From Candidatus Multivoradales bacterium (GTDB lineage Bacteria > Acidobacteriota > Thermoanaerobaculia > Multivoradales > J023), in NCBI GenBank assembly GCA_965248925.1, contig CBDFLE010000006.1, positions 1,216,001 to 1,280,000 of the forward strand: 64,000 nucleotides of DNA, in the 5' to 3' direction. Every line of letters begins with the position of its first letter. The first letter of the stretch is position 1. Of the stretch, positions 45,147-58,201 are shown piece after piece. A model generated the notes under the pieces. That model was not told the origin of the DNA. It ran no database searches and worked only from the letters and a program-made list of their open reading frames with translations. Both the position numbers and the translations under genes were made by a program.

Positions 45147-46121
45147 ATGAACCTGGATGGAAAATTCGAAGACCTACAAGCGCGCACTTTGATGGCTACC
45201 AAAAAGGCCGAGAACGCCCAGCAGCCTCAGACCACCCGTCTTGCGTCAGGGACCCTCTGGGTCCTTCCTCCAACCGCCGCCCATCCGGTCGAGTGGCTGA
45301 TCGTTGACACGACGCCGGCCAAGCGGCTAACTGCTCTCTTGCTGGTCGTACCGGTTGACACTCATCCATTGCTCGGCGAAGGCGACTTCGAAGTGCCGGC
45401 AGACAAGCCGGGCGGCCCACTAAGCGTCCGCAGCCTTCTCGCCTTTTGGGTCGAAGAGGGAGCCTTTCGGCAGGCACGTTTCACGGGACAAGTGGAGGCC
45501 GACGCGGCGACATGGGTGCGGCAGGAACTCGTGGGATCGGACGCTCCGAGCCTCCTGCAGGAGGATGCGGAGAGCGACCCAGAGTATTTCGATTGGCGGC
45601 AGCAAATCGAGAAAGCGTGCGAGATCCTATCGCGATGGCGGGTGGCCGATCCCGTGGATTCAGCGGTGCCAGCGCGACGCCTTCCGCCGCGGCGACTCTG
45701 GATGATTGCAGCCGCTGTGCTGCTCAGCACCAGCGTGGCCACACTCTCTTGGTTCAACGTGGACATGAGCCGGGAACTACGGCAATTCTCAAATCCCACC
45801 CGCGAGCCTACGATAGGCGAGCTGGCCTTTAGCTCGTCCAATCGCTTCGGCACCGATCTGGAGCTCGCGGTGCCAGCATCTTGGTTTCAGCTGATTTTCC
45901 TGCTGCCCAAGGCAGAAGCAGGAAGCCAGAGGATCGAAATCCGGGACGGCCGAGGAGCCGTCCTCTGGAACAGCTCCGTCTTCAGCACCGAGCCCGAGCT
46001 GACCGTCAATCTGGCGCGAAGCAAGTTCCCACCCGGCGTCTATTCCGTCCGCCTCTATGCCGTCGATCCGACTGGATTCGAAGAACACCAAGAGAGCCGC
46101 CGCTTGGAAATCCGACAGTAA
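45147..46121 (+). CDS. Anti-sigma-like single-pass membrane protein
   Basis: Cytoplasmic N-domain, TM WMIAAAVLLSTSVATLSWF, C-terminal beta domain (FPPGVYSVRLY) like that of the locus A anti-sigma (LADGDYRLEL). Confidence 0.65.
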   Translation: MNLDGKFEDLQARTLMATKKAENAQQPQTTRLASGTLWVLPPTAAHPVEWLIVDTTPAKRLTALLLVVPVDTHPLLGEGDFEVPADKPGGPLSVRSLLAFWVEEGAFRQARFTGQVEADAATWVRQELVGSDAPSLLQEDAESDPEYFDWRQQIEKACEILSRWRVADPVDSAVPARRLPPRRLWMIAAAVLLSTSVATLSWFNVDMSRELRQFSNPTREPTIGELAFSSSNRFGTDLELAVPASWFQLIFLLPKAEAGSQRIEIRDGRGAVLWNSSVFSTEPELTVNLARSKFPPGVYSVRLYAVDPTGFEEHQESRRLEIRQ

Positions 46122-46270
46122 CCACCTTGACAAGGCCAACAGCGGAATCGGCACCACTATTTGGTCCCTGGATACAGGAAAAAACGCTTGTAGGAGTGAT
46201 TCGAAGCGAAGATCCCGCACGGCCACAATACGGAAGGGATCCTCTGTTTCGAGTGCAGCCGTTTCTAGTG

Positions 46271-49200
46271 ATGAACACCAGCCGATACTTGAGCGAGTCG
46301 GATCAACAAGTGCCCAAGAAAGGGTGTCTCGGGGAAGCCCGGAGACGCGGGGCCTTCCGTCATCGAATCCTGGATGCGCTCTATCGCTGCCTCCTCGTGC
46401 TCTGCCCGCTGAGCTTCGGGCTGGGGGGGCTCTGCGGCTGCCAACCCGCCGAAGATGAGCATCTGATTGGCAAACAAGGAGGCACCGTGGACACTACCGA
46501 TCTAAACGCTCCTGTGGACTGCGACGCTGACAGCGCCTTCTCCGATTCGTCGGAGCCGGCCGCTGCCAGAAATGCTCGCAAGAACTTCCCTAGCGGATAC
46601 TTGAATCTCGAGACCCCGACTCGCGGTGAACTCGCCGGCGGCGATAGTCGCGATCTGACGGTCGAACTGGCCCGCTGCGACTACGCCCACGTCCGGGTGG
46701 AGCAGCTCGGAGCTGACCTCCAATTGAATCTCTACGGACCCGATGGCGAGCTCCTGACGTCCGTCGACAGCCCGACGGGGAATCAAGGTTTCGAGGAAGT
46801 CTTTGTGGTCGCGCAGCGCGCCGGCAGGCACCGCCTAGAGTTGCGCTCGCTGGACCCACCCAGCCAGTCCGGCGACTTCGTGGCTCACCTTGCCACCGTC
46901 CACTCCGACGCCGACGAAACCGAGCGCCATCGGGTTAGCGGTACTTGGTCCTACGCCCGCGCCGAGGCTCGGCTGGCCGAGGGCAAGCACGCCGAGGCCC
47001 TCGCTTTGTACCAAGGCGCACGGGGCCACTTCCGGAAATCCTTCGACCCAGCCTGGGAGGGCAGGACCTGGCAACGATCAGCGCAGTTGGTACGCAACGA
47101 GGATCCGCTGGCCGCCGCCGATGCACTCAACCAGGCCCTGTCGCTCTTCCGCCAAGCCGGCGAAAAACGCCTGCAAGCGATCACGCTCGCCGAATTGGGT
47201 AGCGTGCGGTTCCGGCTTGGCGAGGTTGAGAGAGCCCGCACGTCCCATCAAGCCGCTCTGGAACTCTTCGAGTTGCTCGATGATCCTCTCGGCAAAGCCA
47301 CTGCACTGAACAACCTCGGGCTAGTCCACAAGCGAGCAGGGGAGATCTTGCAAGCGCTCGAGTGCTATCGCCGTGCGGTGGATCTCTGGCGGGAGCTGAA
47401 GCGCGCCGTGGACCAGCTCTCGACGGAAATCAACCTCGGCAAGCTGCTGCTATCCCTGGGCAAACTGCCGCAAGCTCAAGATCTGTTCGAGTCCTGTCTG
47501 GAAAGCGCCCGGGCGTCCGGCGACCGATCCGCAGAGGCTACTTGTTTGGGCAGCCTGGGCGACATCGAGCAGCGCCGCGGCCGCTATCCGGAGGCTCTCA
47601 AGGTTCTCAAGGACTCATTGAATATCTACCAAGAAGACGGCAGCGTGTCTGGCCAAGGCGTGATTCACAACAGTCTCGGTAACACCTACCTCAAACAAGG
47701 ACAACCGAAGCAGGCTGGTAAGCACTACCAACTGGCACTCGACCTCTTCGAGCAGCAGCAAGATGCCGCGAATCAGGCCGTCAGTCTGCTCAATCTGGGC
47801 CGGTACCATTTCGCCGAGCATCGGTTCATCGAAGCCGCTGCCCGCCACCGGGAGGCACTAGCGCTCTATCGCCAGGTCGGCAATCGATCCGGCGAAGCCG
47901 CGACCCTGTTGGGCGAAGCGCGGTCTGAATATCAGAGAGGCAGACTGCGGACCGCGGAGGCGCTCATCGGAGCTGCGCTCGCGACTGTCGAACTCCTGAG
48001 GCAGGACAGCGGTGGACCAGATCTTCGGGTAGCAGTGGTCGCGTCAAAGTCCGAGTATTGGGAACTCTATGTTCATGTGCTTATGGCGCTACATCGAGAG
48101 GAGCCTGACGCTGAGCATGACCAGCGTGCACTCGAGGTTTGCGAACGCTGGCGCGCACGCAGTTTGCTGGATCTCTTGCGCGAAGCTCGACTGGACTTGC
48201 AAAGCGAAGTGCCAAGCGCCCTCGCTGAAGAAGAACGAGCCCTGCGACAGCGGATCGCCGAGTTGTACCTACAGCGTTTGGAAGCGACCGAGCCGAGCCA
48301 GCATGCTGAGCAAGAAGGATTCGCCAGTCAACTGCGTAGCTTGCAACTCGATCTGGAGTTGCTGAACGCTCGCATCCACAGCCAGAGCCGGCGTTACGGT
48401 GACATCGCACAACTGAATCCGGTCGATACGAGGACGATCCAGCGCGAGTTACTTCGCTCCGACACCCAACTGGTGGAGTATTTCCTCGGCCAGGAACGAT
48501 CCTATGCCTGGCTGGTTTCCCGGCAGCAAGTGACCAGCGTCGAGCTTCCTCCGCGGCAAGAACTCGAGGCCGCAGGCGGTGAAGTCTCCCGGCTCCTCCA
48601 AACCCGTAGCACCGGACAGGAAAAGCGTCGCCAGCGGGCTCTGCAGCGTCTCAGCTCCCTTCTCCTAGAGCCGCTGGCCGACGCCTTGGGTGCAAGTGGG
48701 GCAAGCACGGCGAGTCAAACTCCCCGCCGGCTCCTTGTAGTTGGCGACGGTATTCTCAACACAATTCCCTTTTCCGTACTGCCACTTCCAGGAGATCGGC
48801 GCAACTTGTTGATCGACAAGTTCGAAGTCGTCCACCTACCCTCGGCATCTGTGCTAGCGGCCTTGCGCGACCGCCAGCGCAGGCGACCCATCCGGGATGA
48901 GTTGAGAATCGCGCTATTCGCGGATCCTATCTACCAGTCGGACGATGAGCGCCTGGCGGGCGCTCCTGGCGGTTCCGTCGATTCAGGTGCAGCCTGGCAC
49001 AAAGACCTCTCGACCGCCGCCCGAGACTTGGAGCTTGGCACCTTTCAACGACTTCCCCACACACGGGTCGAAGTCGAAGAGATCTCCAGGCTCTTCTCGG
49101 GTAACCGTCGAACGGTAGAGCTGGGTTTCGCGGCCACCCGCTCGCACCTGCTGGAAACCGACCTAAAGTCGTATTCACTGCTGCACTTCGCCACCCACGG

Positions 49201-51181
49201 TGTACTCAACCGGAGGCACCCCAGCCTCTCGGGTCTGGTTCTCTCTTTGATCGACGAGAACGGTGATCCGCAGGATGGCTTCCTACGCTTGCAGGACATC
49301 TACAACCTAAGGCTGGAAGCTGAGTTGGTCACACTCAGTGCCTGCCAGACCGGGCTAGGCGCGGAAGTTCGCGGCGAAGGGCTCATCGGACTGACCCGGG
49401 GTTTCATGTATGCGGGTTCACCTCGAGTTCTGGTCAGTCTGTGGCGGGTAGACGACGCGGCGACTGCCGAGCTCATGAAGCGCTTCTATCGAGAGCTTCT
49501 TGATCCCAAGCAAGACGATTCGCCCGGCGTCGCCGCCGCTCTTCGCCGCGCACAGCTATCAATGCGAGAGGAATCCGCTTGGACCGAGCCTTTCTACTGG
49601 GCTGGCTTTGTCTTGCAAGGCGAATGGCGCCAGTTTCAAGGCTTGTCACTGCCACCCAACGACATCGGCCAAGACCAGGCTGGCCCCGTCGACCGCGATC
49701 CGGATTCCGACCAAGACATGCCCACCCAGGGCGACCATCTTGGCAGCTCCGGCGGGGCGGCAAACCTACACTCCGTCGAAAACAACAGCCGCAACGCCAC
49801 AAGCGCCCGCAGGGCAACCCAGGAGAGAGAGAGCATCAAAACTGTCCGGCAGGCCAAGCCGGCCGGCGATTTCCTGGAGCGTTTCCTCGAGGCCGCGCTG
49901 GCGGCCGAATCTTACGATGAAACACGTCACGATCCCCCTGAAGGGATCGAGCCACGTAGCCTAGCTGAGACCGGCTGGGGGGTGATCTTCGCTGAGGACA
50001 CCCCGCCAGCCGTTCGCCACGCGCTCAATACTCTGCTTGACCACCGCCAGCGCCTAGCCGGGCGCCGCCATCCACACTACTACCAGACCTTTACTTACCG
50101 TCCAGGTACCAGTGCGGTGGAGTTTCTTAGTGATGCCCGGGTACCAGTGGGCGAAACCGGCCATCCAGACCGAATTCCCTACTATCTCCTGCTGGTGGGC
50201 AGTCCTTCACAGATCCCATTCCAATTCCAGTTTGATCTCGATCTCCAGTACGCCGTGGGCCGCCTAGATCTCGCCAACGCCGACCAATATCGTGAATACG
50301 CTCTCACCGTCGTCGAGGCTGAGGAGGGCCGCATCCGTCGCCCACGCCAAGTGTCGTTGTACGGAGCCCGAGGCGACCAGGCGAGCCGCACGACTGCTGA
50401 AGAACTGGTGGCAGCGCTTGCCGAACGACTCGGTAAGCAACTTGAGGGTTGGCAGATCCGAAACTTGTCTGATCCCAAAGTCGGCACCAAAGAACAGTTG
50501 GGCGAGCTACTCGGCGGTAGCGAAACGCCGGCGATCCTCTTCGCCTCGGCCCACGGCCTTCGCTTTACCTCAGGCCACGCTTTGCAGCGTGAACTGCAAG
50601 GATCTTTGGTCAGCTCGGCTTGGGCCAAGGTCAGGGGTGACCACATTGGCCACGATCACATCTTCTCCGCCGGAGATCTGAGTCCGGAAGCGGATCTGCA
50701 AGGTCTAATTGCCTTCTTCTTCACCTGCTACGGCGCCGGAACACCAAGGCAGGACACCTTCTTCAGAAACACTGGCGAATCGCCAGCAGAACCGCCCGTG
50801 ATAGCACCGGAGCCTTTCACTTCGCGCCTCGCCCAGAGCCTCCTCGGGCGGCCAGGTGGAGCTCTGGCAGTGGTCAGTCATGTCGAGCGCACTTGGACTT
50901 CGGCTTTTCAGAGCTATGACGATGACCAGCAGATCGAGAGCTTCCATAGCACCCTCCGCCGACTGATGGCAGGTCACCCGGTGGGTTCTGCCACCAGCCG
51001 TATCGATCTGCGCCGTGGTCAGATAGCGGCACATCTACGCTCCTTGAACGATTGGGATCGGCTCAGCCCGCTCGAGCAGAAGATCCACGACCGTTTGTGG
51101 CAGGAATACCTAGACGCCCGCAACTTTATCGTCCTCGGCGATCCCGCGGTCGCTCCCGCACTGGGCGGAACGCGATCATGA
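46271..51181 (+). CDS. PPC-like/TPR/CHAT protease fused to a C-terminal C25 (gingipain)/caspase-like protease domain; start uncertain
   Basis: Lipobox-like GLCGC; TPRs (ALNNLGLVH, IHNSLGNTY); CHAT LLHFATHG and LSACQTG; second domain PYYLLLVG, YAVGRL, SAHG, FTCYGAG, VLGDPA. Confidence 0.9.
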   Translation: MNTSRYLSESDQQVPKKGCLGEARRRGAFRHRILDALYRCLLVLCPLSFGLGGLCGCQPAEDEHLIGKQGGTVDTTDLNAPVDCDADSAFSDSSEPAAARNARKNFPSGYLNLETPTRGELAGGDSRDLTVELARCDYAHVRVEQLGADLQLNLYGPDGELLTSVDSPTGNQGFEEVFVVAQRAGRHRLELRSLDPPSQSGDFVAHLATVHSDADETERHRVSGTWSYARAEARLAEGKHAEALALYQGARGHFRKSFDPAWEGRTWQRSAQLVRNEDPLAAADALNQALSLFRQAGEKRLQAITLAELGSVRFRLGEVERARTSHQAALELFELLDDPLGKATALNNLGLVHKRAGEILQALECYRRAVDLWRELKRAVDQLSTEINLGKLLLSLGKLPQAQDLFESCLESARASGDRSAEATCLGSLGDIEQRRGRYPEALKVLKDSLNIYQEDGSVSGQGVIHNSLGNTYLKQGQPKQAGKHYQLALDLFEQQQDAANQAVSLLNLGRYHFAEHRFIEAAARHREALALYRQVGNRSGEAATLLGEARSEYQRGRLRTAEALIGAALATVELLRQDSGGPDLRVAVVASKSEYWELYVHVLMALHREEPDAEHDQRALEVCERWRARSLLDLLREARLDLQSEVPSALAEEERALRQRIAELYLQRLEATEPSQHAEQEGFASQLRSLQLDLELLNARIHSQSRRYGDIAQLNPVDTRTIQRELLRSDTQLVEYFLGQERSYAWLVSRQQVTSVELPPRQELEAAGGEVSRLLQTRSTGQEKRRQRALQRLSSLLLEPLADALGASGASTASQTPRRLLVVGDGILNTIPFSVLPLPGDRRNLLIDKFEVVHLPSASVLAALRDRQRRRPIRDELRIALFADPIYQSDDERLAGAPGGSVDSGAAWHKDLSTAARDLELGTFQRLPHTRVEVEEISRLFSGNRRTVELGFAATRSHLLETDLKSYSLLHFATHGVLNRRHPSLSGLVLSLIDENGDPQDGFLRLQDIYNLRLEAELVTLSACQTGLGAEVRGEGLIGLTRGFMYAGSPRVLVSLWRVDDAATAELMKRFYRELLDPKQDDSPGVAAALRRAQLSMREESAWTEPFYWAGFVLQGEWRQFQGLSLPPNDIGQDQAGPVDRDPDSDQDMPTQGDHLGSSGGAANLHSVENNSRNATSARRATQERESIKTVRQAKPAGDFLERFLEAALAAESYDETRHDPPEGIEPRSLAETGWGVIFAEDTPPAVRHALNTLLDHRQRLAGRRHPHYYQTFTYRPGTSAVEFLSDARVPVGETGHPDRIPYYLLLVGSPSQIPFQFQFDLDLQYAVGRLDLANADQYREYALTVVEAEEGRIRRPRQVSLYGARGDQASRTTAEELVAALAERLGKQLEGWQIRNLSDPKVGTKEQLGELLGGSETPAILFASAHGLRFTSGHALQRELQGSLVSSAWAKVRGDHIGHDHIFSAGDLSPEADLQGLIAFFFTCYGAGTPRQDTFFRNTGESPAEPPVIAPEPFTSRLAQSLLGRPGGALAVVSHVERTWTSAFQSYDDDQQIESFHSTLRRLMAGHPVGSATSRIDLRRGQIAAHLRSLNDWDRLSPLEQKIHDRLWQEYLDARNFIVLGDPAVAPALGGTRS

Positions 51182-54100
51182 GTTCCCCCGACTCAGATCG
51201 ACCCGATCTTGACAACGAGGGTGCGGCGGAGGACGAGGAATACCGGTCGATGTGGGACTCGCCGCGGAAAGCTGTCAACCGAGCTTTCCGATTGCGACGT
51301 GATCACGGCTCGGACTCAGCCCCGAATCCGTCAGCGGAGCCACCTGCAGATCCAGATAGCCGCAGATCACGCGGCGAGCCCAGTGACCGGAGTGGCGACC
51401 AATATCACGTCTATGTCGACAACCGCCCTCACTCGACGGGTGACATTGATGGACCGGCGGAGTTCTACCCTCTAGGGCTAGAGTCACTGGAACCATTCTC
51501 TGGTCTTGAACCGCCTCAGGCGGTCGTAGACCTGAGTAACCGCCTGCAGACCGAACACCTGTTGATCCTGGGTGGTGCCGACTTTGCCGAAAAACACAGT
51601 CTGGCCTGCCAGGTCATCTGGAACCTGCAAACTACCTGTCGGCCTGGCCCAGACCACGGTGTTGAACTGGCCGCCAAGGAGTGGCTGCGCGGATCGGATC
51701 GGCCCCGACTTGCGACGCTCCTACAAACGGGGTCCAAGCCGACGATCTATCTACTTGACCAAGCGCGGCCAATCCACCTCGAATTCGCGTCCCAGCGACT
51801 TCGCGAGCTGGCCCGCCGCAACGGCCACTTTGTCCTCATTACGACAGATTTCTCGGTAGACGAGTGGTCCCTACCCGAAGGGTTCTCCCAGTGCGTCTGG
51901 CAGAATCTGACAACGACCAAGATCTATACGCCGCGCTACCTCGCCCAGTGTCTACGCCAGACGTTGAAGGGTGTTGAAGTGGAGGGGATCTTTCCCGACG
52001 GGCCACCACCAAATCGAGATGAAGATGCCGTACTGAACGCACCGCTCATCCACAGCTTGACGCTTCTCGACGCCGCCACTCTGCTTCAGTCTCCCGACCG
52101 CATCCGCTCCTTCGCCGATTGGCTACGGCGCCACAGCGGACCCCTCGAGCTAGAGCAGATCACCCGTTTCATTCGTCGGCTGCAGGGCAACAAGGCGGCG
52201 ATCGAGGGGTGGTATCGGCAGCTCGATCCTCGCAAACGTCTGCTGATCACTTTCATCGCCCTGTTCGACGGCCTGCTCGACGACCAGCTTTTTGCGACTC
52301 TGGACATCATTCTCGATGCGGTATGGCGTGACAGGGACCCAAGCCAACCGGCTTATGACTACAACGACCTGAACGAACTCAGCAGCTACGTCCGCAAGAA
52401 CCCACTCGACCGCGGCGGCCTAACATTGTCCACCAACTCCCGATCGCAGCGGCAGGCACTACTGGAGGTGTCCTGGGAGCTTCACAGACGACAGATCCTG
52501 GCCGCCATCCCGGTGGTGGCGGAACTCGTCAATCGAGCGTCGCAGTGGCTCAACCAGAGTTTTCGCCATGCAGCAGCACCCCAGATCACTGCCCGGACCT
52601 CGCCGAACGCAGAGCAGCGCGACAGCGCTGAGGACAACGGCCAGGACAGCGGTATGGCCCAGCCGAGCGCGGTTCGAGAGGGTTACGTTTCGCGTTGGCA
52701 CGACTATGGCCCCGAGCGAGAACTCTATAGCACGGTGCCGCGCAAGGCCAAGCTGCTGCAAGCACTGGCCGACGCGCTGAGCGTGCTCGGCACATTCTCA
52801 CGCAATGCCGTTGAACGAGCACTTCACCAGATAGCCGCTAACCGAGAGTGGGAAGTGCGGCAGGTCACAGCGACCGCCATGGCGAGGTGGAAGGAGCATC
52901 CCGATCATCCCCAGCTGCTCTATGCAACTCTGCATGCTTGGCAGAATGAAGCCAGGCAGAAAGCCAGGGGGGCAGCACCGCAGGAGGATGCTCGAGGTTT
53001 GTCCCAAATTCGCGCCACTGTGATGGAAATCGTCGGCTACTCCGTCCTCTACGATCCGCCCAATCAGCTAGCAGAACCGCTCCTACGATTGATCGAGAAA
53101 GCACTTCCTGACCACAACCGCCTGGTGCAGACCGCACTGAGGTTTTTGACCATCCCACTGGCGGTTGCCCACCACCGCCGCCAGCTGGACGACTTCATCA
53201 TCGAACTGGTCACGGATTCGCAAATGATCCGAGCTGTTGCCATGGGTTGGGCCAAGTGCCTCGAGCTACGTCCCGAAGAAGGGAAAGAGTTGATACGAGA
53301 ATGGCACCGGCGCTTTCTTTCGGCGACCGCCAATCCCGAGGAGCCACCTGAACGCAATGAGAGATGCTTAGCGACGCTAGCAGCCACCTATGGCGAAATC
53401 GAGGTTGGAAGTTCCGCAGCCCTGGATTCCGACGAACTCCTCAGGCGCATCCATCAGCTGCTGCAAAACCACCACCCGTTCGTTCGAGATTGGGCGATTC
53501 GTGCCTTGACTCGGCGCATCGGCGTTCATGTGAAAGAGATTCCCAAACGCCTCCAACAAGTGTTGGCCGAACTGCGACTCGAAGAGAAGCCAAGAGTCGT
53601 CACCGCACTGCGGGGACTTTACTTGCGCCAGCGGGCGTCTCTCGAAGGTGGAGACTTCAAGGTCTCGATCAAGGGCACATCCTTCGTCCTTTGGTCGCGA
53701 CCCGGCCTACGCCCGCTGACAACGGTTGAGGTAACGCTTTATGACTGGTTCGCTGATGAATCTCAGCCCGAGACTCAGGAACTCGCCTTGGCCGCACTGG
53801 CCGAGATTCGGGCCACTGCGGTCGATGAAGAAGAGCGTCACTTACAGGAACTCGGACCTCCCGAAGTCCCCGCCGAATCCCCAACTCAAGCCAAAGAAAT
53901 CAAGACCATCGTAAGGGTCACAGATCCGCCCCGACGGCGTTTCCTTGATCGCGTGCAGAAGCTGCTGCTCAACCTGACCACATGGCAGGAACAGCGAATC
54001 CGCACCGGCTTGAGTGGTCTAACCCCGGAGCTGATCGTTCAGGATCGCCGGGATCTGCAGCGGATGAGACCCGTATTCGACTCCCTGCGCGCTCAGGGCG

Positions 54101-54222
54101 GCCGCACGGCGCTACTGGGTCGCTACCTGCGTCGATTCCAATACCTCTACCGGTGGCGAAAGCTGTTGTTCGCAGTCACCGGCCTTATACTACTAGTGAT
54201 GCTATTGCAGATGATCTTCTGA
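51178..54222 (+). CDS. Large protein with degenerate P-loop (inactive-STAND-like), HEAT/ARM-like helical repeats and C-terminal TM
   Basis: ATGA coupling; LLILGGADFAEKHSLA (Walker A-like), IYLLDQ (Walker B-like), WEVRQVTATAMA and HPFVRDWAIRAL (HEAT-like), LLFAVTGLILLVMLLQMIF. Confidence 0.7.
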   Translation: MSSPDSDRPDLDNEGAAEDEEYRSMWDSPRKAVNRAFRLRRDHGSDSAPNPSAEPPADPDSRRSRGEPSDRSGDQYHVYVDNRPHSTGDIDGPAEFYPLGLESLEPFSGLEPPQAVVDLSNRLQTEHLLILGGADFAEKHSLACQVIWNLQTTCRPGPDHGVELAAKEWLRGSDRPRLATLLQTGSKPTIYLLDQARPIHLEFASQRLRELARRNGHFVLITTDFSVDEWSLPEGFSQCVWQNLTTTKIYTPRYLAQCLRQTLKGVEVEGIFPDGPPPNRDEDAVLNAPLIHSLTLLDAATLLQSPDRIRSFADWLRRHSGPLELEQITRFIRRLQGNKAAIEGWYRQLDPRKRLLITFIALFDGLLDDQLFATLDIILDAVWRDRDPSQPAYDYNDLNELSSYVRKNPLDRGGLTLSTNSRSQRQALLEVSWELHRRQILAAIPVVAELVNRASQWLNQSFRHAAAPQITARTSPNAEQRDSAEDNGQDSGMAQPSAVREGYVSRWHDYGPERELYSTVPRKAKLLQALADALSVLGTFSRNAVERALHQIAANREWEVRQVTATAMARWKEHPDHPQLLYATLHAWQNEARQKARGAAPQEDARGLSQIRATVMEIVGYSVLYDPPNQLAEPLLRLIEKALPDHNRLVQTALRFLTIPLAVAHHRRQLDDFIIELVTDSQMIRAVAMGWAKCLELRPEEGKELIREWHRRFLSATANPEEPPERNERCLATLAATYGEIEVGSSAALDSDELLRRIHQLLQNHHPFVRDWAIRALTRRIGVHVKEIPKRLQQVLAELRLEEKPRVVTALRGLYLRQRASLEGGDFKVSIKGTSFVLWSRPGLRPLTTVEVTLYDWFADESQPETQELALAALAEIRATAVDEEERHLQELGPPEVPAESPTQAKEIKTIVRVTDPPRRRFLDRVQKLLLNLTTWQEQRIRTGLSGLTPELIVQDRRDLQRMRPVFDSLRAQGGRTALLGRYLRRFQYLYRWRKLLFAVTGLILLVMLLQMIF

Positions 54223-54234
54223 GGCCGATCAACA

Positions 54235-55812
54235 ATGGACCAAGCTCTGAAAGCCTTGCGCGCCTATTGGCGCAATAAGAATCACGGCCTGACAGAAGAA
54301 CTCGAGAACGCCTGCCGCCAGGTGTCAGAGCGACTCCGCACAGCAGCAAAAGCCAACAATTATGAGGCTCAGAACTCCCTGAGTGACGGCGAGCTGAGGA
54401 CTCAACTAGAGAGCCTAGGGAAGGGAGGAGATGGAGTCATCCGCCGCTTTTTGGAGAGGACTCAGGTGTCGAAGAAAGGCACTTCTGAGCGGCCAGAGGT
54501 TCAACTGCCGTCTCCAAAGTCAACCGGAGACAGTTACCGTAACAGCTTTGGAACGGTCCACGGTGGACTCCGGTTCGGCCCGCAGAATTACTACGGGCCC
54601 ACCGAACTCGCCCCATCTGTAGATGCGGAGCCAGACTCCGAAAGAGCCAAGACCGAAAGCAGCTGGTTCAATGCTCCAGAGCCCCTGCTCACCCCCCCAG
54701 GCGACCTGGAACTGAGAGTCCACCGCGTACCTAGCACTACAAGTGAATGGCAAATCGAGCTGGCGTTGCAAGGGGCGCCAGTAGATCCCGGACCAAGATC
54801 ATTCGAGCCTTTTACCCTTCATCCTAGGACTGGCGAGAAAATTAGAGGTTTCTTGGCGCAGATCGACCGCGCGCGCGTACCCATCGGAGAATGGGGGTCC
54901 GTTCCTCTCGTAGTCCAAAACTTCGGTTCAATGCTCTTCGACAAGATTCTCCGAAAACCGTTGGGCGAAGCTCTGTGGGTCTCACGCGATGTCCGCGGTG
55001 CTCTGCTGGTAGTGTCTGAGGAACCTTGGATCCCATGGGAGATCGTACAATTGCAGCAGCCGCACCAGAGGAATGGAAGCGAGCGTCGCGGCCCTTTCCT
55101 CTGCGAAGCCTTCAACCTCCTACGATGGCCGCCGTCCGCCGGGCATGAGGACAAGGAGGGTCGGCTACATCTCTCGCCGCCCATGACTCTACCGACGAAG
55201 CGTATCGCCGTGGTGGCACCGCAATCGGCCGAATTGCGAGCGCAAAAGCCCGAGGTTGAGTTCCTCCTCTCCCTGAGTCCCGAGCGACAAGTCAAGATGA
55301 TTCCCGCCAAGGAGGAAACGATCCGTGAACACATTTGCAGTGGCAATTTCGACGCTTGGCACTTCTGCGGTCACGGCTCGCTGGGCGACGACCCACATTT
55401 AGCAGGATTCCCACTCGATGATGGCAAGTTCCTAACGCCGCAGATCCTAGCGGGCAACTGCGGCTCCTTCGGAGACCCGCAACCATTGGTGTTCATGAAC
55501 GGGTGCTACAGCGGCCGCGCCGGGGATTCTCTGGTCGATATAGGCGGCTGGCCATCGGCTTTCCTTCGCGCCGGTGCCGGTGCCTTTATCGGCAGTCTGT
55601 GGCAGATCAGTAGCGAGCAAGCCTTCGACTACATGCGTGAGTTCTACACTCAATGGTTGACGGGTGCGACCCTGGCAAGCGCCCTTCACCACGCCCGAGA
55701 GCAAGCCAGTGGGCTAGCCGACCCCACCCGGTTGGCCTACACCGCGTACGGTCATCCCGCCGCGAGCTGCACCGGCCGAGGCAAAGGAACCGAAGCTACC
55801 ACCTACTACTGA
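54235..55812 (+). CDS. Cytoplasmic CHAT-domain protease with N-terminal helical domain and G/N/aromatic-rich motif
   Basis: EPWIPWEIV, AWHFCGHG (His), LVFMNGCYSG (Cys), AFIGSLW, LAYTAYGHP. Confidence 0.9.
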   Translation: MDQALKALRAYWRNKNHGLTEELENACRQVSERLRTAAKANNYEAQNSLSDGELRTQLESLGKGGDGVIRRFLERTQVSKKGTSERPEVQLPSPKSTGDSYRNSFGTVHGGLRFGPQNYYGPTELAPSVDAEPDSERAKTESSWFNAPEPLLTPPGDLELRVHRVPSTTSEWQIELALQGAPVDPGPRSFEPFTLHPRTGEKIRGFLAQIDRARVPIGEWGSVPLVVQNFGSMLFDKILRKPLGEALWVSRDVRGALLVVSEEPWIPWEIVQLQQPHQRNGSERRGPFLCEAFNLLRWPPSAGHEDKEGRLHLSPPMTLPTKRIAVVAPQSAELRAQKPEVEFLLSLSPERQVKMIPAKEETIREHICSGNFDAWHFCGHGSLGDDPHLAGFPLDDGKFLTPQILAGNCGSFGDPQPLVFMNGCYSGRAGDSLVDIGGWPSAFLRAGAGAFIGSLWQISSEQAFDYMREFYTQWLTGATLASALHHAREQASGLADPTRLAYTAYGHPAASCTGRGKGTEATTYY

Positions 55813-55843: not shown

Positions 55844-56836
55844 TCAATCCCGCCCCGCCTTGGGAAAGACGATCACTACCAAGAACGTGCTCTGCCAGAA
55901 CAGCACCGGGTCGACGATCTCTAGAATGCCGTCCTGCTGTCGCAGCGAGTAGGAAGCGGGAGGCCGCAAGGGCAACAACTCGATCTTGCGCCAAGCCGTT
56001 CCCACAACAATTTCTAGCATTGAGTTCCGCTCCGCCTCCAGAAAATGATCGCGCACCAGATCCGGGGTAGAATTAAGAAAGCGACGCTTGCGCAAGCCAA
56101 ACATCCTCTTCTCTTCCTGCAGAATGCCTTGCTTGAGAAGCTCTTGCCGAGTGCCAAGTGTCCAGTACACAAGCAGTTTGCGGTGCTCCTCCCGAGACAG
56201 CTCTAGTTGCCGCTGGGCCAAGGTTTCGTCTTGCTCCCCGATCACTTCCGATTGCTCGGTGATGAACTCACCCTGTTCGGCGACTTCAGTTTGCAACTCC
56301 TCGACCGTCCCTTGCAGGTGCTCCACGCGCCGGCTCAGATAGACAATCCTCTTCAGCAACCGTGCAGCGTCCTCTTCCAGTTCGCTGTTCCGATCCCGCA
56401 GGCGGTGCGCCATAGCCTCCAGGTCGACAAGATTTCCGCCGGCAAGGCTTAGCAGTGATTGCAAACGATCAATCTGCTCGTCGTTGATCCGCGCATCGTC
56501 GCTGAGACTCTGCAAACGCTGGAGCAGGGTCTTCTCCCGCAGTAGCTGACGATTCTCAAGATCGCTGGCCAAGATCTGGCTCGAGAGATCGAACTTCTCC
56601 TCCTGCATCCCTTCGACCCTCTCACCTACCTCGTTCAATACCTGAGTGATGATCGCCACATAGACATCCTTCGACCGCGAGGACGCCTTCTCCCACTCAA
56701 CCCGCTTCAGCAGGCGCTCGTTCTCAGCTTCAACTCGCCTGAGTGTCCGCACATGCGACCAGCTCCAGAAGCCGAGCGCCATGCAAACCAACGACAAGAC
56801 CGCTGCCGACAGGTAGCTGATTCTCCCGGCCTTCAT
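55844..56836 (-). CDS. Membrane-anchored coiled-coil protein
   Basis: N-terminal TM, long heptad pattern, C-terminal VYWTLGTRQELLKQGIL domain. Confidence 0.75.
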   Translation of the reverse strand: MKAGRISYLSAAVLSLVCMALGFWSWSHVRTLRRVEAENERLLKRVEWEKASSRSKDVYVAIITQVLNEVGERVEGMQEEKFDLSSQILASDLENRQLLREKTLLQRLQSLSDDARINDEQIDRLQSLLSLAGGNLVDLEAMAHRLRDRNSELEEDAARLLKRIVYLSRRVEHLQGTVEELQTEVAEQGEFITEQSEVIGEQDETLAQRQLELSREEHRKLLVYWTLGTRQELLKQGILQEEKRMFGLRKRRFLNSTPDLVRDHFLEAERNSMLEIVVGTAWRKIELLPLRPPASYSLRQQDGILEIVDPVLFWQSTFLVVIVFPKAGRD

Positions 56837-57411
56837 CGTGTTGGCAACTCCAAAGAGGTCAACCCCTCAGCAGATGTTCCCGACATGCCAAGGTCACCCA
56901 AACGCACAACCTCCCATGCCGACGGCGAATCCTCGTCCAGATCGGAAACGAGGCGAAAACCCCGCTCCGAATCTGCTAAGAGCCAGCCGCAGATCTGCCC
57001 GGAGAAGCAGATCTGGTAGTGACCAGCTTCCGGCTCGAAGCGGAGTCTCGCAATTCCCTCTTCCCGTAGATCGGGAAGGTTTAGGCGATAGCCCACTGCC
57101 CAGTCTCTCTTCTGAGGTACCATCGCCAGAATCTCTAGAACCACTGTTTGGTGACCGTCCCCTGTGAACATAGTGCCAACCCAACTGCCAGCCAACTGCT
57201 CAGCCGTTGGGGGTCGACATGGCGCCGTCAGCGCCACCTCGGTATACTGGGGAGGGATCGACTCACCGCAAGCCAGCAAACCGACTCCGACCAACAGTGA
57301 TATGCTATGAACGCAGTTACCCCTCCGCAAGGAGCTAGCGAAAGTACAGTGGCGAAGTGTCTCAGCAGCCGCATAAACTGACCCCCAGACTAACTTGCCA
57401 AATCTACCCAT
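56833..57411 (-). CDS. Hypothetical lipoprotein; start uncertain
   Basis: LLVGVGLLAC lipobox; LAGSWVG; 4-bp overlap with the downstream gene. Confidence 0.6.
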   Translation of the reverse strand: MGRFGKLVWGSVYAAAETLRHCTFASSLRRGNCVHSISLLVGVGLLACGESIPPQYTEVALTAPCRPPTAEQLAGSWVGTMFTGDGHQTVVLEILAMVPQKRDWAVGYRLNLPDLREEGIARLRFEPEAGHYQICFSGQICGWLLADSERGFRLVSDLDEDSPSAWEVVRLGDLGMSGTSAEGLTSLELPTR

Positions 57412-57466
57412 CCGCCTACCAAAGCCTTGTTGTCACAAAGAATTGCGAACGAACCTCCAACCTGAT

Positions 57467-58201
57467 CTAATCTCGACGAAAACGCCATCGCTGATCACCA
57501 CTTTTTACAACTGCTCGAAGTTCCGCGTCCCTCTTGCCGTCGTCCCACATAGTACTGTTGATGCCAAACCAACTTGTGAACTCCGAGTGATAGTGCCGAG
57601 ACTTTGGATTAACCGTAAGCTGCCCCTCCCGCTCATCATAACTCTCAACTATCAGAGGTGCCTCTCGATCCGAACATTCCGAGAAACACTCACGCTTGCT
57701 GCTCGACGCCCCCTCCGAACGGATTTCGACGAAGACTCTCTGAGGCCTACGGCCAACGGAATGTTCGTGCATTCCAACGTCATCCGAACTGTCGATTGCC
57801 CCTGGATCGTCGGACCGTTCCACGAGTGAATCGCTGGCGGAAGGCCGTGGTTCTTCAGAGCAGAATATCTCGGCAATCTCACCCAGCAGAGGACGCCACT
57901 CTTCAATATCCGCGGATTCTGCCGAAAATTGAACACGGAGAGGCTTCGCATGGGTATCCATCGAAATCTGAACACGACGCAGAGCATTCTCCAACGCGCT
58001 CTCGATATCTCTTGCCAACCGGTTCCTTGCTTCTTTCGAGAGGGAACTTTCTCGCGGTGACACCGATATAGTTACCCCAGCTGCCTTCCATAACTTCCGC
58101 ATCCCCCATACTAGAATCGAGACCAACGCCAAGGCCAACAGCGCCTGAATCCAGTACAACTTGATCAATTCAACCTGTTTGTGCCACTGGAGTATGTTCA
58201 C
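57467..58201 (-). CDS. Hypothetical single-pass membrane protein
   Basis: TM IQALLALALVSILVWG; AGGAG RBS. Confidence 0.7.
   Translation of the reverse strand: MNILQWHKQVELIKLYWIQALLALALVSILVWGMRKLWKAAGVTISVSPRESSLSKEARNRLARDIESALENALRRVQISMDTHAKPLRVQFSAESADIEEWRPLLGEIAEIFCSEEPRPSASDSLVERSDDPGAIDSSDDVGMHEHSVGRRPQRVFVEIRSEGASSSKRECFSECSDREAPLIVESYDEREGQLTVNPKSRHYHSEFTSWFGINSTMWDDGKRDAELRAVVKSGDQRWRFRRD

Follow-up and report, generated by a model that had tools for sequence, protein, structure and literature searches.

We analyzed a 64,000-nucleotide stretch of the genome of Candidatus Multivoradales bacterium (GenBank assembly GCA_965248925.1, contig CBDFLE010000006.1, positions 1,216,001 to 1,280,000 of the forward strand), here called the window, which carries a caspase with its partner sensor (locus A) and a CHAT protease effector encoded behind a second putative sensor (locus B). 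Within the linker of the locus B effector lies a 25-residue island that we regard, with moderate confidence, as a diverged effector-side coupling motif of an amyloid-type signaling pair. An earlier reading of the window, made by a model from the letters and a list of open reading frames (ORFs) alone and referred to here as the original prediction, had instead tied this island to the tail of the locus A caspase. It had proposed that one motif is attached to interchangeable protease effectors and that the two loci could cross-talk.

Architecture of the locus B effector

Locus B is a three-gene operon encoding a giant TPR-CHAT protein, a sensor or scaffold, and the 525-aa CHAT effector. The effector is classed as a protease on two grounds: a PF12770 score of 63 bits, above the cut-off of 24, and an intact catalytic dyad formed by His380 (in GHG, residues 379–381) and Cys424 (in NGC, residues 422–424). 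An AlphaFold2 model of residues 1–150, computed from a six-sequence alignment, places helices at 2–12, 21–41, 51–63, and 67–81 (pLDDT 75–87), and residues 81–149 are disordered (pLDDT <50). The model and Pfam together bear out the proposed layout of a helical N-domain, a disordered linker, and a CHAT domain. The segment quoted at 54529–54600 on the forward strand was also read correctly, its translation being the quoted letters minus the first G; the full stretch, GD...YYGP, starts at 54526. The island is rich in glycine, asparagine, and aromatic residues, with six Gly, five aromatic residues, and no Lys or Glu, and its flanks are charged and Pro-rich.

Direct searches with this region recovered little. 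Residues 1–140, compared by phmmer with 1.84 billion representatives, returned the protein itself and one marginal 24-residue match, a result that reflects sensitivity rather than absence because homologues surfaced in other searches. When the whole CHAT protein was compared with 61 relatives, the 150 matches listed all began at or beyond query residue 147, except the window's own.

Matched motifs in the closest relatives

The sensor-family alignment, searched in 121 relatives, found matches in eight genomes, the window's own included. Two relatives from the same order (loci L083 and L082, in genomes G454 and G459) have the window's architecture of N-domain, motif, and CHAT together with matched motifs. 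In L083, the sensor gene is followed with a 4-bp overlap by the gene for a 530-aa N-domain/linker/CHAT protein, whose linker motif matches the N-terminus of its own sensor with z 7.8 (0 of 2000 shuffles, p<0.0005). In L082, a 530-aa CHAT protein begins on the sensor stop codon and is 34% identical to the window CHAT over residues 27–514 (E 8e-64), and its linker matches its own sensor with z 4.3 and p 0.0015. A further locus, L085 (G053), has the same gene order, and its effector-sensor match is not significant (p 0.15).

In a MAFFT alignment the window island falls on the motifs of L083 and L082. Residues held in common with L083 are the GD at the start, an N, and H.GL; those held in common with L082 are GD and V.GG.R.G. 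These positional homologues are GRD[IL]-type or GDGNLN-type motifs, and the aligned sequences suggest that the island is a positional homologue of genuine effector-side motifs but has lost the core that they have.

Two genomes from the same family as the window genome, G010 (L084) and G021 (L087), encode a sensor followed by a short CHAT-like protein, read from GC-rich DNA with putative starts. The helical N-terminal region of these proteins has no G/N-rich motif, and a short R.F.[YL]RRD-like stretch recurs in the N-termini of their sensors and in the extension of the window sensor.

Effector-sensor matching across the sensor family

Sensor homologues comprised seven proteins in a search of 5.8 billion, 15 loci in species genomes, and 30 metagenome loci. 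The species genomes were labeled as cyanobacteria, Acidobacteriota, Anaerolineaceae, Myxococcaceae, Longimicrobium, Bacteroidetes, and a Methanotrichaceae archaeon. Sensor genes of this family neighbor genes for Bell-like, TIR, CHAT, alpha/beta-hydrolase-like, PNP_UDP, or EAD7 proteins, where Bell-like denotes ~150-aa proteins whose N-terminal helix is hydrophobic and whose second residue is acidic, and is a name given by that feature only. Two arrangements recur. Upstream effectors, which are Bell-like or otherwise TIR, CHAT, or alpha/beta-hydrolase-like, repeat the sensor N-terminus in their C-terminal 20–30 residues. In downstream effectors (CHAT, PNP_UDP, or EAD7) the repeat lies close to the N-terminus, with or without a helical domain ahead of it.

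Effector-sensor matching was tested with 1000 shuffles each in 23 of the 45 fetched loci. Excluded were duplicates or near-duplicates (L048, L050, L053, L055, L058, L059, L067, L068, and similar loci), loci cut by contig ends, and loci for which ORF picking gave no adjacent same-strand neighbor. The effector motif matched the sensor N-terminus at p ≤0.002 in 13 of these 23 foreign systems and at p 0.03–0.06 in three more, although related systems are not independent, so that such counts overstate the number of separate events. Together with the locus A pair described below, these systems support the broader notion that effectors are interchangeable and are coupled to sensors by short matched motifs. 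An extreme matched pair occurs in L046 (4356–5909 and 5995–9207), where the upstream CHAT protein ends in ~30 residues that repeat the beginning of the sensor almost exactly (score 154, z 24).

The four-helix N-domain

A hidden Markov model (HMM) of the N-termini of four foreign effectors (L025, L027, L029, and L030), built without the window sequence, placed the window CHAT at the top of 73,914 six-frame ORFs, with E 0.0054 over residues 2–35. A six-sequence profile of the N-domain also found L083, which lay outside its training set, at E 7.8e-10, and L051 weakly at 2.6e-4. This domain can stand ahead of CHAT, PNP_UDP, or EAD7 modules.

The suggestion that the N-domain might be Death-like, an effector-associated domain (EAD), or Bell did not find support. 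It had no Pfam match even at E 10, EAD models included; Foldseek with the domain model gave nothing at E ≤0.001, the best VIA Z being 6.4 to an unrelated chain; and the ESM Atlas returned no usable match for CHAT residues 1–135. The N-domain is not duplicated on the sensor (p 0.43 against the whole sensor, p 0.28 against the 1766-aa protein encoded by the first gene of the operon), and a comparison of the linker plus N-domain with both complete proteins yielded nothing significant. These sequence comparisons point to a family-specific, adaptor-like domain that is probably confined to the effector side.

One 220-aa protein of the family, from L039 (8269–8931), joins the four-helix N-domain, a sensor-matched motif, and EAD7 (E 8.8e-22) in a row, which suggests a pure adaptor that would recruit further EAD7 effectors.

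The sensor of locus B

The sensor ATG overlaps the stop codon of the preceding 1766-aa ORF as ATGA, and a 12-bp gap on the same strand separates the sensor from the CHAT gene, the adjacent and collinear placement of a BASS pair. The protein begins with a disordered N-terminus, continues with an NB-ARC-like module and helical repeats, and ends in a C-terminal transmembrane helix; this hydrophobic helix is also present in homologues P0073–P0076 and P0079. Of the sensor homologues, P0073–P0075 are the closest, with 35–43% identity. AlphaFold2 with 24 homologues modeled residues 95–460 of the first 500 confidently (pLDDT mostly 84–97). The best Foldseek matches of this module were ZAR1, NRC2, Apaf-1, CED-4, Orc1/Cdc6, and MalT (E 1.8e-6 to 2e-4), with TM 0.2–0.4 for the first four (E 1.8e-6 to 1e-4), and the predicted fold is of the nucleotide-binding domain–helical–winged-helix type. 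There were zero NTPase matches in Pfam, NCBIfam, and PADLOC, including NB-ARC, NACHT, and other STAND models. In place of a canonical Walker A (GxxxxGK[ST]) the sensor has GGADFAEKHS, and the family consensus is LGG....DK. Taken together, sequence and model suggest a membrane-anchored, probably hydrolysis-dead, NLR-like sensor or scaffold.

In nine aligned sensor N-termini, the motif block lies just before a semi-conserved GDQY/EQNV element and the invariant F of a ..FFEP.. strand. The window sensor has a charged, Pro-rich stretch in place of the motif block, an extra N-terminal extension of ~50 residues in front of it, and a lineage-specific insertion of ~10–14 residues behind GDQY. The original prediction had named a weaker motif candidate here. 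Its coordinates, 51394–51468 on the forward strand, are exact; as a variable coupling motif of the usual sort the candidate fails, for it consists of a family-conserved element, the insertion, and a fold strand. In homologous sensors GDQY is found again after the motif block, and FYP (residues 96–98) is the first strand of the folded module, its F96 being unchanged throughout alignments A1 and A2. The insertion (YHVYV...) may represent a strand that has moved. A short-query BLAST of the candidate segment against the genome returned nothing better than E 2.4.

Locus A as a matched pair

Locus A is a good matched pair. The caspase and sensor genes are adjacent and collinear with a gap of 8 bp, and a motif is common to the effector C-terminus and the sensor's N-terminal region, as in BASS pairs. 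The sensor-side copy of the tail end occupies residues 148–157 of the 988-aa protein, behind ~147 disordered residues. Tail and sensor match significantly across shuffle tests (z 4.4–6.0, p ≤0.002), individual tests giving z 4.8 (p 0.001) and z 6.0 (none of 5000 shuffles as high). The sensor core is identical to the cognate tail at 8 of 10 positions, compared with 5 of 10 for the CHAT segment.

No kinship could be detected between the locus A sensor and the sensor family of locus B (best BLASTP E 1.0; hhalign probability 0.2%), and a word-based search found no relatives of the locus A sensor; its Atlas features point weakly to nSTAND3-like clusters, which we treat as a lead only. Assignment of the caspase as an 'EACC1-associated' caspase was rejected (96 bits against a cut-off of 140). 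Some caspase homologues have N/Q/G-rich tails at the same C-terminal place (22 of 65 matches read), and others have an adaptor domain instead of the tail (by precomputed Pfam among the 65, EAD7 in 11, TIR_2 in 10, and EAD1 and EAD10 in one each). This alternation of tail and adaptor supports a picture of interchangeable couplers. In a cyanobacterial homologue of the caspase, P0043, a short beta-type tail at residues 299–327 is matched by Pfam EAD10 (E 1.7e-5), and at least some sequences assigned to EAD10 may therefore be equivalent to a BASS-like tail motif.

Likeness of the island to locus A

SYRN, FG.V.G, and VHG are indeed common to the CHAT island and the caspase tail of locus A, as claimed, and this stretch ranks first when the two whole proteins are compared by BLASTP (9 of 18 identities, E 0.39). 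Against a Smith–Waterman null of 2000 composition-preserving shuffles, with windows of 90 aa for the linker and 70 aa for the tail set beforehand, the CHAT linker matched the caspase tail with z 2.8 (p 0.015) and the locus A sensor with z 2.1 (p 0.046). Narrower windows, picked after the match had been seen and run with softer gap costs and 5000 shuffles, gave z 3.6 with p 0.003 for the tail and p 0.017 for the sensor. Scores of this size are not rare among motif-bearing segments of 24 systems: 21 of 227 between-group effector-effector pairs reach the score with the tail (at least 37), and 28 of 454 effector-sensor pairs reach the score with the sensor (at least 33). Ranked by score, the locus A tail is the best of 23 other effector segments for the CHAT linker (37), and among 24 sensor N-termini the locus A sensor comes second (33) to the effector's own (38).

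Wider searches were less favorable. CHAT is absent from the 15 best matches of the caspase tail in a short-query BLAST of the genome's six-frame ORFs. An HMM of the locus A core scored the CHAT segment at −0.2 bits, which places it 1014th among 33,063 genome matches, or 251st of 6,193 over 4.65 million residues when ORFs of at least 150 aa were considered. At these ranks, the proteins encoded by any 64-kb window should contain about one such match. Among 73,914 ORFs the pattern [VIL]HG[DGN][VIL][NHRQ]F occurs nowhere but at the three sites, a uniqueness that must be interpreted with caution because the pattern was written after the sites were seen.

The orthologous linkers of L083 and L082 bear no likeness to locus A (p 0.2–0.8). 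The resemblance of the window CHAT is therefore peculiar to this genome. Overall, the resemblance is only marginally more than chance. The claim that locus A and CHAT carry the same motif is left without support, given that the positional homologues belong to another motif type, no kinship between the sensors was detected, and the scores are marginal. As part of the explanation we prefer, and at its same middling level of confidence, we attribute the likeness to the shared composition and grammar of this class of motif rather than to common descent or dedicated cross-talk. The resemblance is either chance or, less likely, drift of the island towards the locus A pattern after its own sensor had lost its motif.

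Interpretation and competing explanations

We propose that the N-terminal 150 residues of the effector form a coupling region consisting of the family-specific four-helix domain and the disordered linker. The island occupies the place where homologous effectors carry a ~20-aa, beta-prone motif that copies the N-terminus of their own sensor. By analogy with BASS and NLR systems, an activated and oligomerized sensor would gather its N-terminal motifs; the gathered motifs would bind the effector-side motif, templating it or zippering with it; and the clustered CHAT protease would become active by proximity. The four-helix domain may provide additional or alternative docking in this subfamily. In this genome the pair seems to have drifted, with an effector island that is recognizable but diverged and a sensor whose motif block is gone, so that coupling probably now depends on the N-domain and a weak GD.Y/aromatic match. 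We read the coupling motif as drifted and possibly half-orphaned. A complex prediction with sensor residues 60–465 and effector residues 1–135 scored 0.00, which speaks neither for nor against binding.

Several observations weigh against this proposal. The window's effector and sensor do not match significantly (p 0.084, 0.096, and 0.084): a short motif shared as in a BASS pair was not found, and the first two values also count against the proposed match between the CHAT segment and its upstream partner; the best local alignment of the pair lies in the acidic/Pro-rich flank and not in the island. Linker-to-linker scores with the relatives are weak (p 0.0375 for L083, 0.14 for L082), and the closest orthologue compared is ~34% identical. 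A profile of 19 GRD[IL]-type motifs had neither the CHAT island nor the sensor N-terminus among its 2,890 matches. Matched motifs occur in only four of nine other N-domain effectors (L029, L039, L082, and L083); the five without one (L025, L027, L030, L051, and L085) imply that the motif is dispensable in this subfamily. The island might accordingly be a decayed relic or a plain linker without function, with the four-helix N-domain alone docking the effector to the sensor. We consider this doubtful, though a serious contender: the five motif-less effectors, the missing motif block of the window sensor, the non-significant own-pair match, and the blindness of the motif-family profile all favor it, whereas the island remains compositionally distinct within its charged flanks, and its anchor residues are common with the L082 and L083 motifs at the same alignment columns.

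Membership of the island in the locus A motif family, with templating by the locus A sensor and cross-talk between the loci, possibly since the island's own sensor lost its motif, strikes us as improbable. The rankings of the locus A sensor and tail, the shuffle tests in both broad and narrow windows, and the F..VHG.[LV].F common to three sites would fit it, and re-wiring would predict a resemblance limited to this genome's CHAT. Yet unrelated pairs span a range that includes these scores, the HMM of the locus A core yields no positive score, identity to the sensor core is well below that of the cognate pair, and the ancestry of the island lies in a different motif type. Moreover, the match was spotted by eye in one window and is inflated by that selection. 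The corresponding evolutionary scenario, in which the locus B sensor lost its own motif, the CHAT island drifted towards the F..VHG.[LV].F...YG of the unrelated locus A sensor, and one sensor fires both caspase and CHAT, is in our judgment equally improbable. If true, such drift would have wired two immune loci of a single genome into a network at the level of motifs.

The shared S-Y-R-N could alternatively mark an Arg-specific processing site, cleavage of which would release the locus A caspase from its tail and, in locus B, strip off the N-domain and leave the motif exposed at a newly formed N-terminus; we regard this pair of proposals, judged jointly, as very unlikely. SYR is present in both window proteins, at 54538–54546 in CHAT and at 900–911 in the caspase tail. 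An Arg (Lys in L030) stands 0 to ~4 residues ahead of the motif in all seven printed GRD-type instances, from five distinct systems (the effectors of L029, L030, L039, L043, L044, L047, and L048). Several caspase tails likewise have an Arg ahead of the motif, and in relatives L043, L044, and L047 the motif sits directly at the effector N-terminus. However, four residues are all that is in common, and such linkers are rich in S, G, and R anyway, so that the Arg may be just linker composition.

Relation to known signaling systems

In BASS pairs, as the text of the preprint describes them, a motif of ~20–25 aa is common to an effector and the N-terminus of an NLR-like protein encoded by adjacent, collinear genes; the screen required a Pfam NB-ARC or NACHT match, and the effector motif is C-terminal (bioRxiv 10.1101/2020.01.06.895854). 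Judged against that description, locus A and most relatives of locus B fit the pattern, with G/N/Q/V-rich composition, effector-side pseudorepeats, and Bell, TIR, CHAT, and alpha/beta-hydrolase effectors. Locus B departs from it in several respects. Sensors of its family lack a Pfam NB-ARC or NACHT match and have a degenerate Walker A. The effector gene of locus B and of its closest relatives stands downstream, with the motif lying inside the protein or N-terminally, behind a four-helix domain (in the window, residues 98–122 of 525, not the C-terminus). The window's own pair is not significantly matched. In the Bab/Agp system (BASS11), an E. coli antiphage system, an amyloid motif is described as coupling a non-canonical sensor to a neighboring effector (bioRxiv 10.1101/2024.11.07.622273). 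Compared by description only, it differs in its TPR-GreA/B-C-PIN sensor, its small pore-forming effector, and its C-terminal motif.

The passages of Kaur et al. (PMC7159879) that deal with effector-associated domains describe small adaptor modules duplicated on a core component and a neighboring effector, in systems with inactive STAND cores, caspase-like, TIR, and PNP effectors, and a MoxR-vWA pair. Set beside those passages, the locus A caspase homologues in which EAD7, EAD1, or EAD10 replaces the tail look similar, as does L039, the relative of locus B that joins N-domain, motif, and EAD7. Unlike those systems, neither locus has a MoxR-vWA pair beside it, the sole MoxR in the window lying ~20 kb away in a DUF58/transglutaminase operon, and the N-domain matches no EAD model and is found on the effector only.

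In apoptosome-type activation, Apaf-1 or CED-4 activates caspase-9 or CED-3 by induced proximity. The modeled sensor module is structurally closest to the Apaf-1/CED-4 class, and a caspase-like effector would fire by induced proximity here as well. Differences are an adaptor that is apparently not a CARD or Death-fold domain, nucleotide hydrolysis that is unlikely, and a sensor that is membrane-anchored.

A keyword search of the open-access literature, with the supplements and figures of the BASS preprint outside its reach, found no prior description of the locus B sensor family or the N-domain. Motif-templated coupling of sensors to cell-death effectors is already established for Pfam-recognizable NLRs with C-terminal effector motifs. 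Our observations would extend it to a sensor family missed by domain-based screens (a predicted NB-ARC-like fold with a degenerate P-loop and a membrane anchor), to effectors that are encoded downstream and carry the motif internally or N-terminally, and to a previously unnamed four-helix adaptor ahead of CHAT, PNP_UDP, or EAD7. The window pair looks like a system in drift, with the effector motif retained and the sensor motif gone. A drifting pair of this kind would lend itself naturally to testing how closely sequences must match for coupling and whether orphan motifs become re-wired to other sensors.

Features of the window and neighboring genes

Table 1 Features of loci A and B, with coordinates in the window.
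Feature	Coordinates	Strand	Basis
Locus A partner/sensor, N-terminal 267 aa (988 aa in genome)	1..801	-	
F..VHGDVNF of locus A sensor, matching caspase tail	331..360	-	
Locus A caspase (Peptidase_C14), 324 aa	810..1784	-	Pfam
Tail motif of locus A caspase	813..911	-	translation
First gene of locus B, 1766-aa ORF: TPR repeats, CHAT, C-terminal ~490 aa without Pfam match	45881..51181	+	
Locus B sensor/scaffold, 1014 aa from ATG at 51178	51178..54222	+	database holds 1014-aa form
Partner candidate: GDQY element, 10–14-residue insertion, FYP strand	51394..51468	+	
NB-ARC-like nucleotide-binding/oligomerization module (predicted)	51460..52557	+	AlphaFold2, Foldseek
Hydrophobic C-terminal helix of sensor (putative membrane anchor)	54163..54219	+	read from sequence
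CHAT effector ORF, 525 aa	54235..55812	+	ORF reading
Four-helix N-terminal adaptor-like domain, residues 1–82 of CHAT effector	54235..54480	+	AlphaFold2 model, HMM
Island in CHAT linker, residues 98–122, 25 aa	54526..54600	+	translation; disordered in model
CHAT (caspase-like) protease domain, PF12770, residues 232–491	54928..55707	+	E 3.3e-17

The first gene of locus B encodes a protein with Pfam matches to CHAT (3.7e-75, residues 918–1248) and TPR_12 (1.2e-41). The first ~130 codons of this ORF look non-coding, leaving its true start uncertain. Its C-terminal domain of ~490 aa contains a second His...Cys pair in caspase-like contexts (SAHG, TCYGAG).

Related genes cluster around locus A (2209–6238 on the reverse strand, and L002:3605–4909, also reverse). 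Upstream are an ECF sigma factor, a 253-aa ORF, and an 898-aa TPR-CHAT protein; downstream of the sensor are an 828-aa unknown protein and a second caspase of 434 aa.

Locus B is followed on the opposite strand by an 832-aa ORF without a family match (58213–60711, reverse strand), alongside three smaller unknown ORFs at 55844–58201. A DDE transposase (DUF772 + DDE_Tnp_1; 61006–62397, forward strand) and an rve-type integrase (63012–64000, forward strand) lie a few kb beyond, so that locus B borders mobile DNA.

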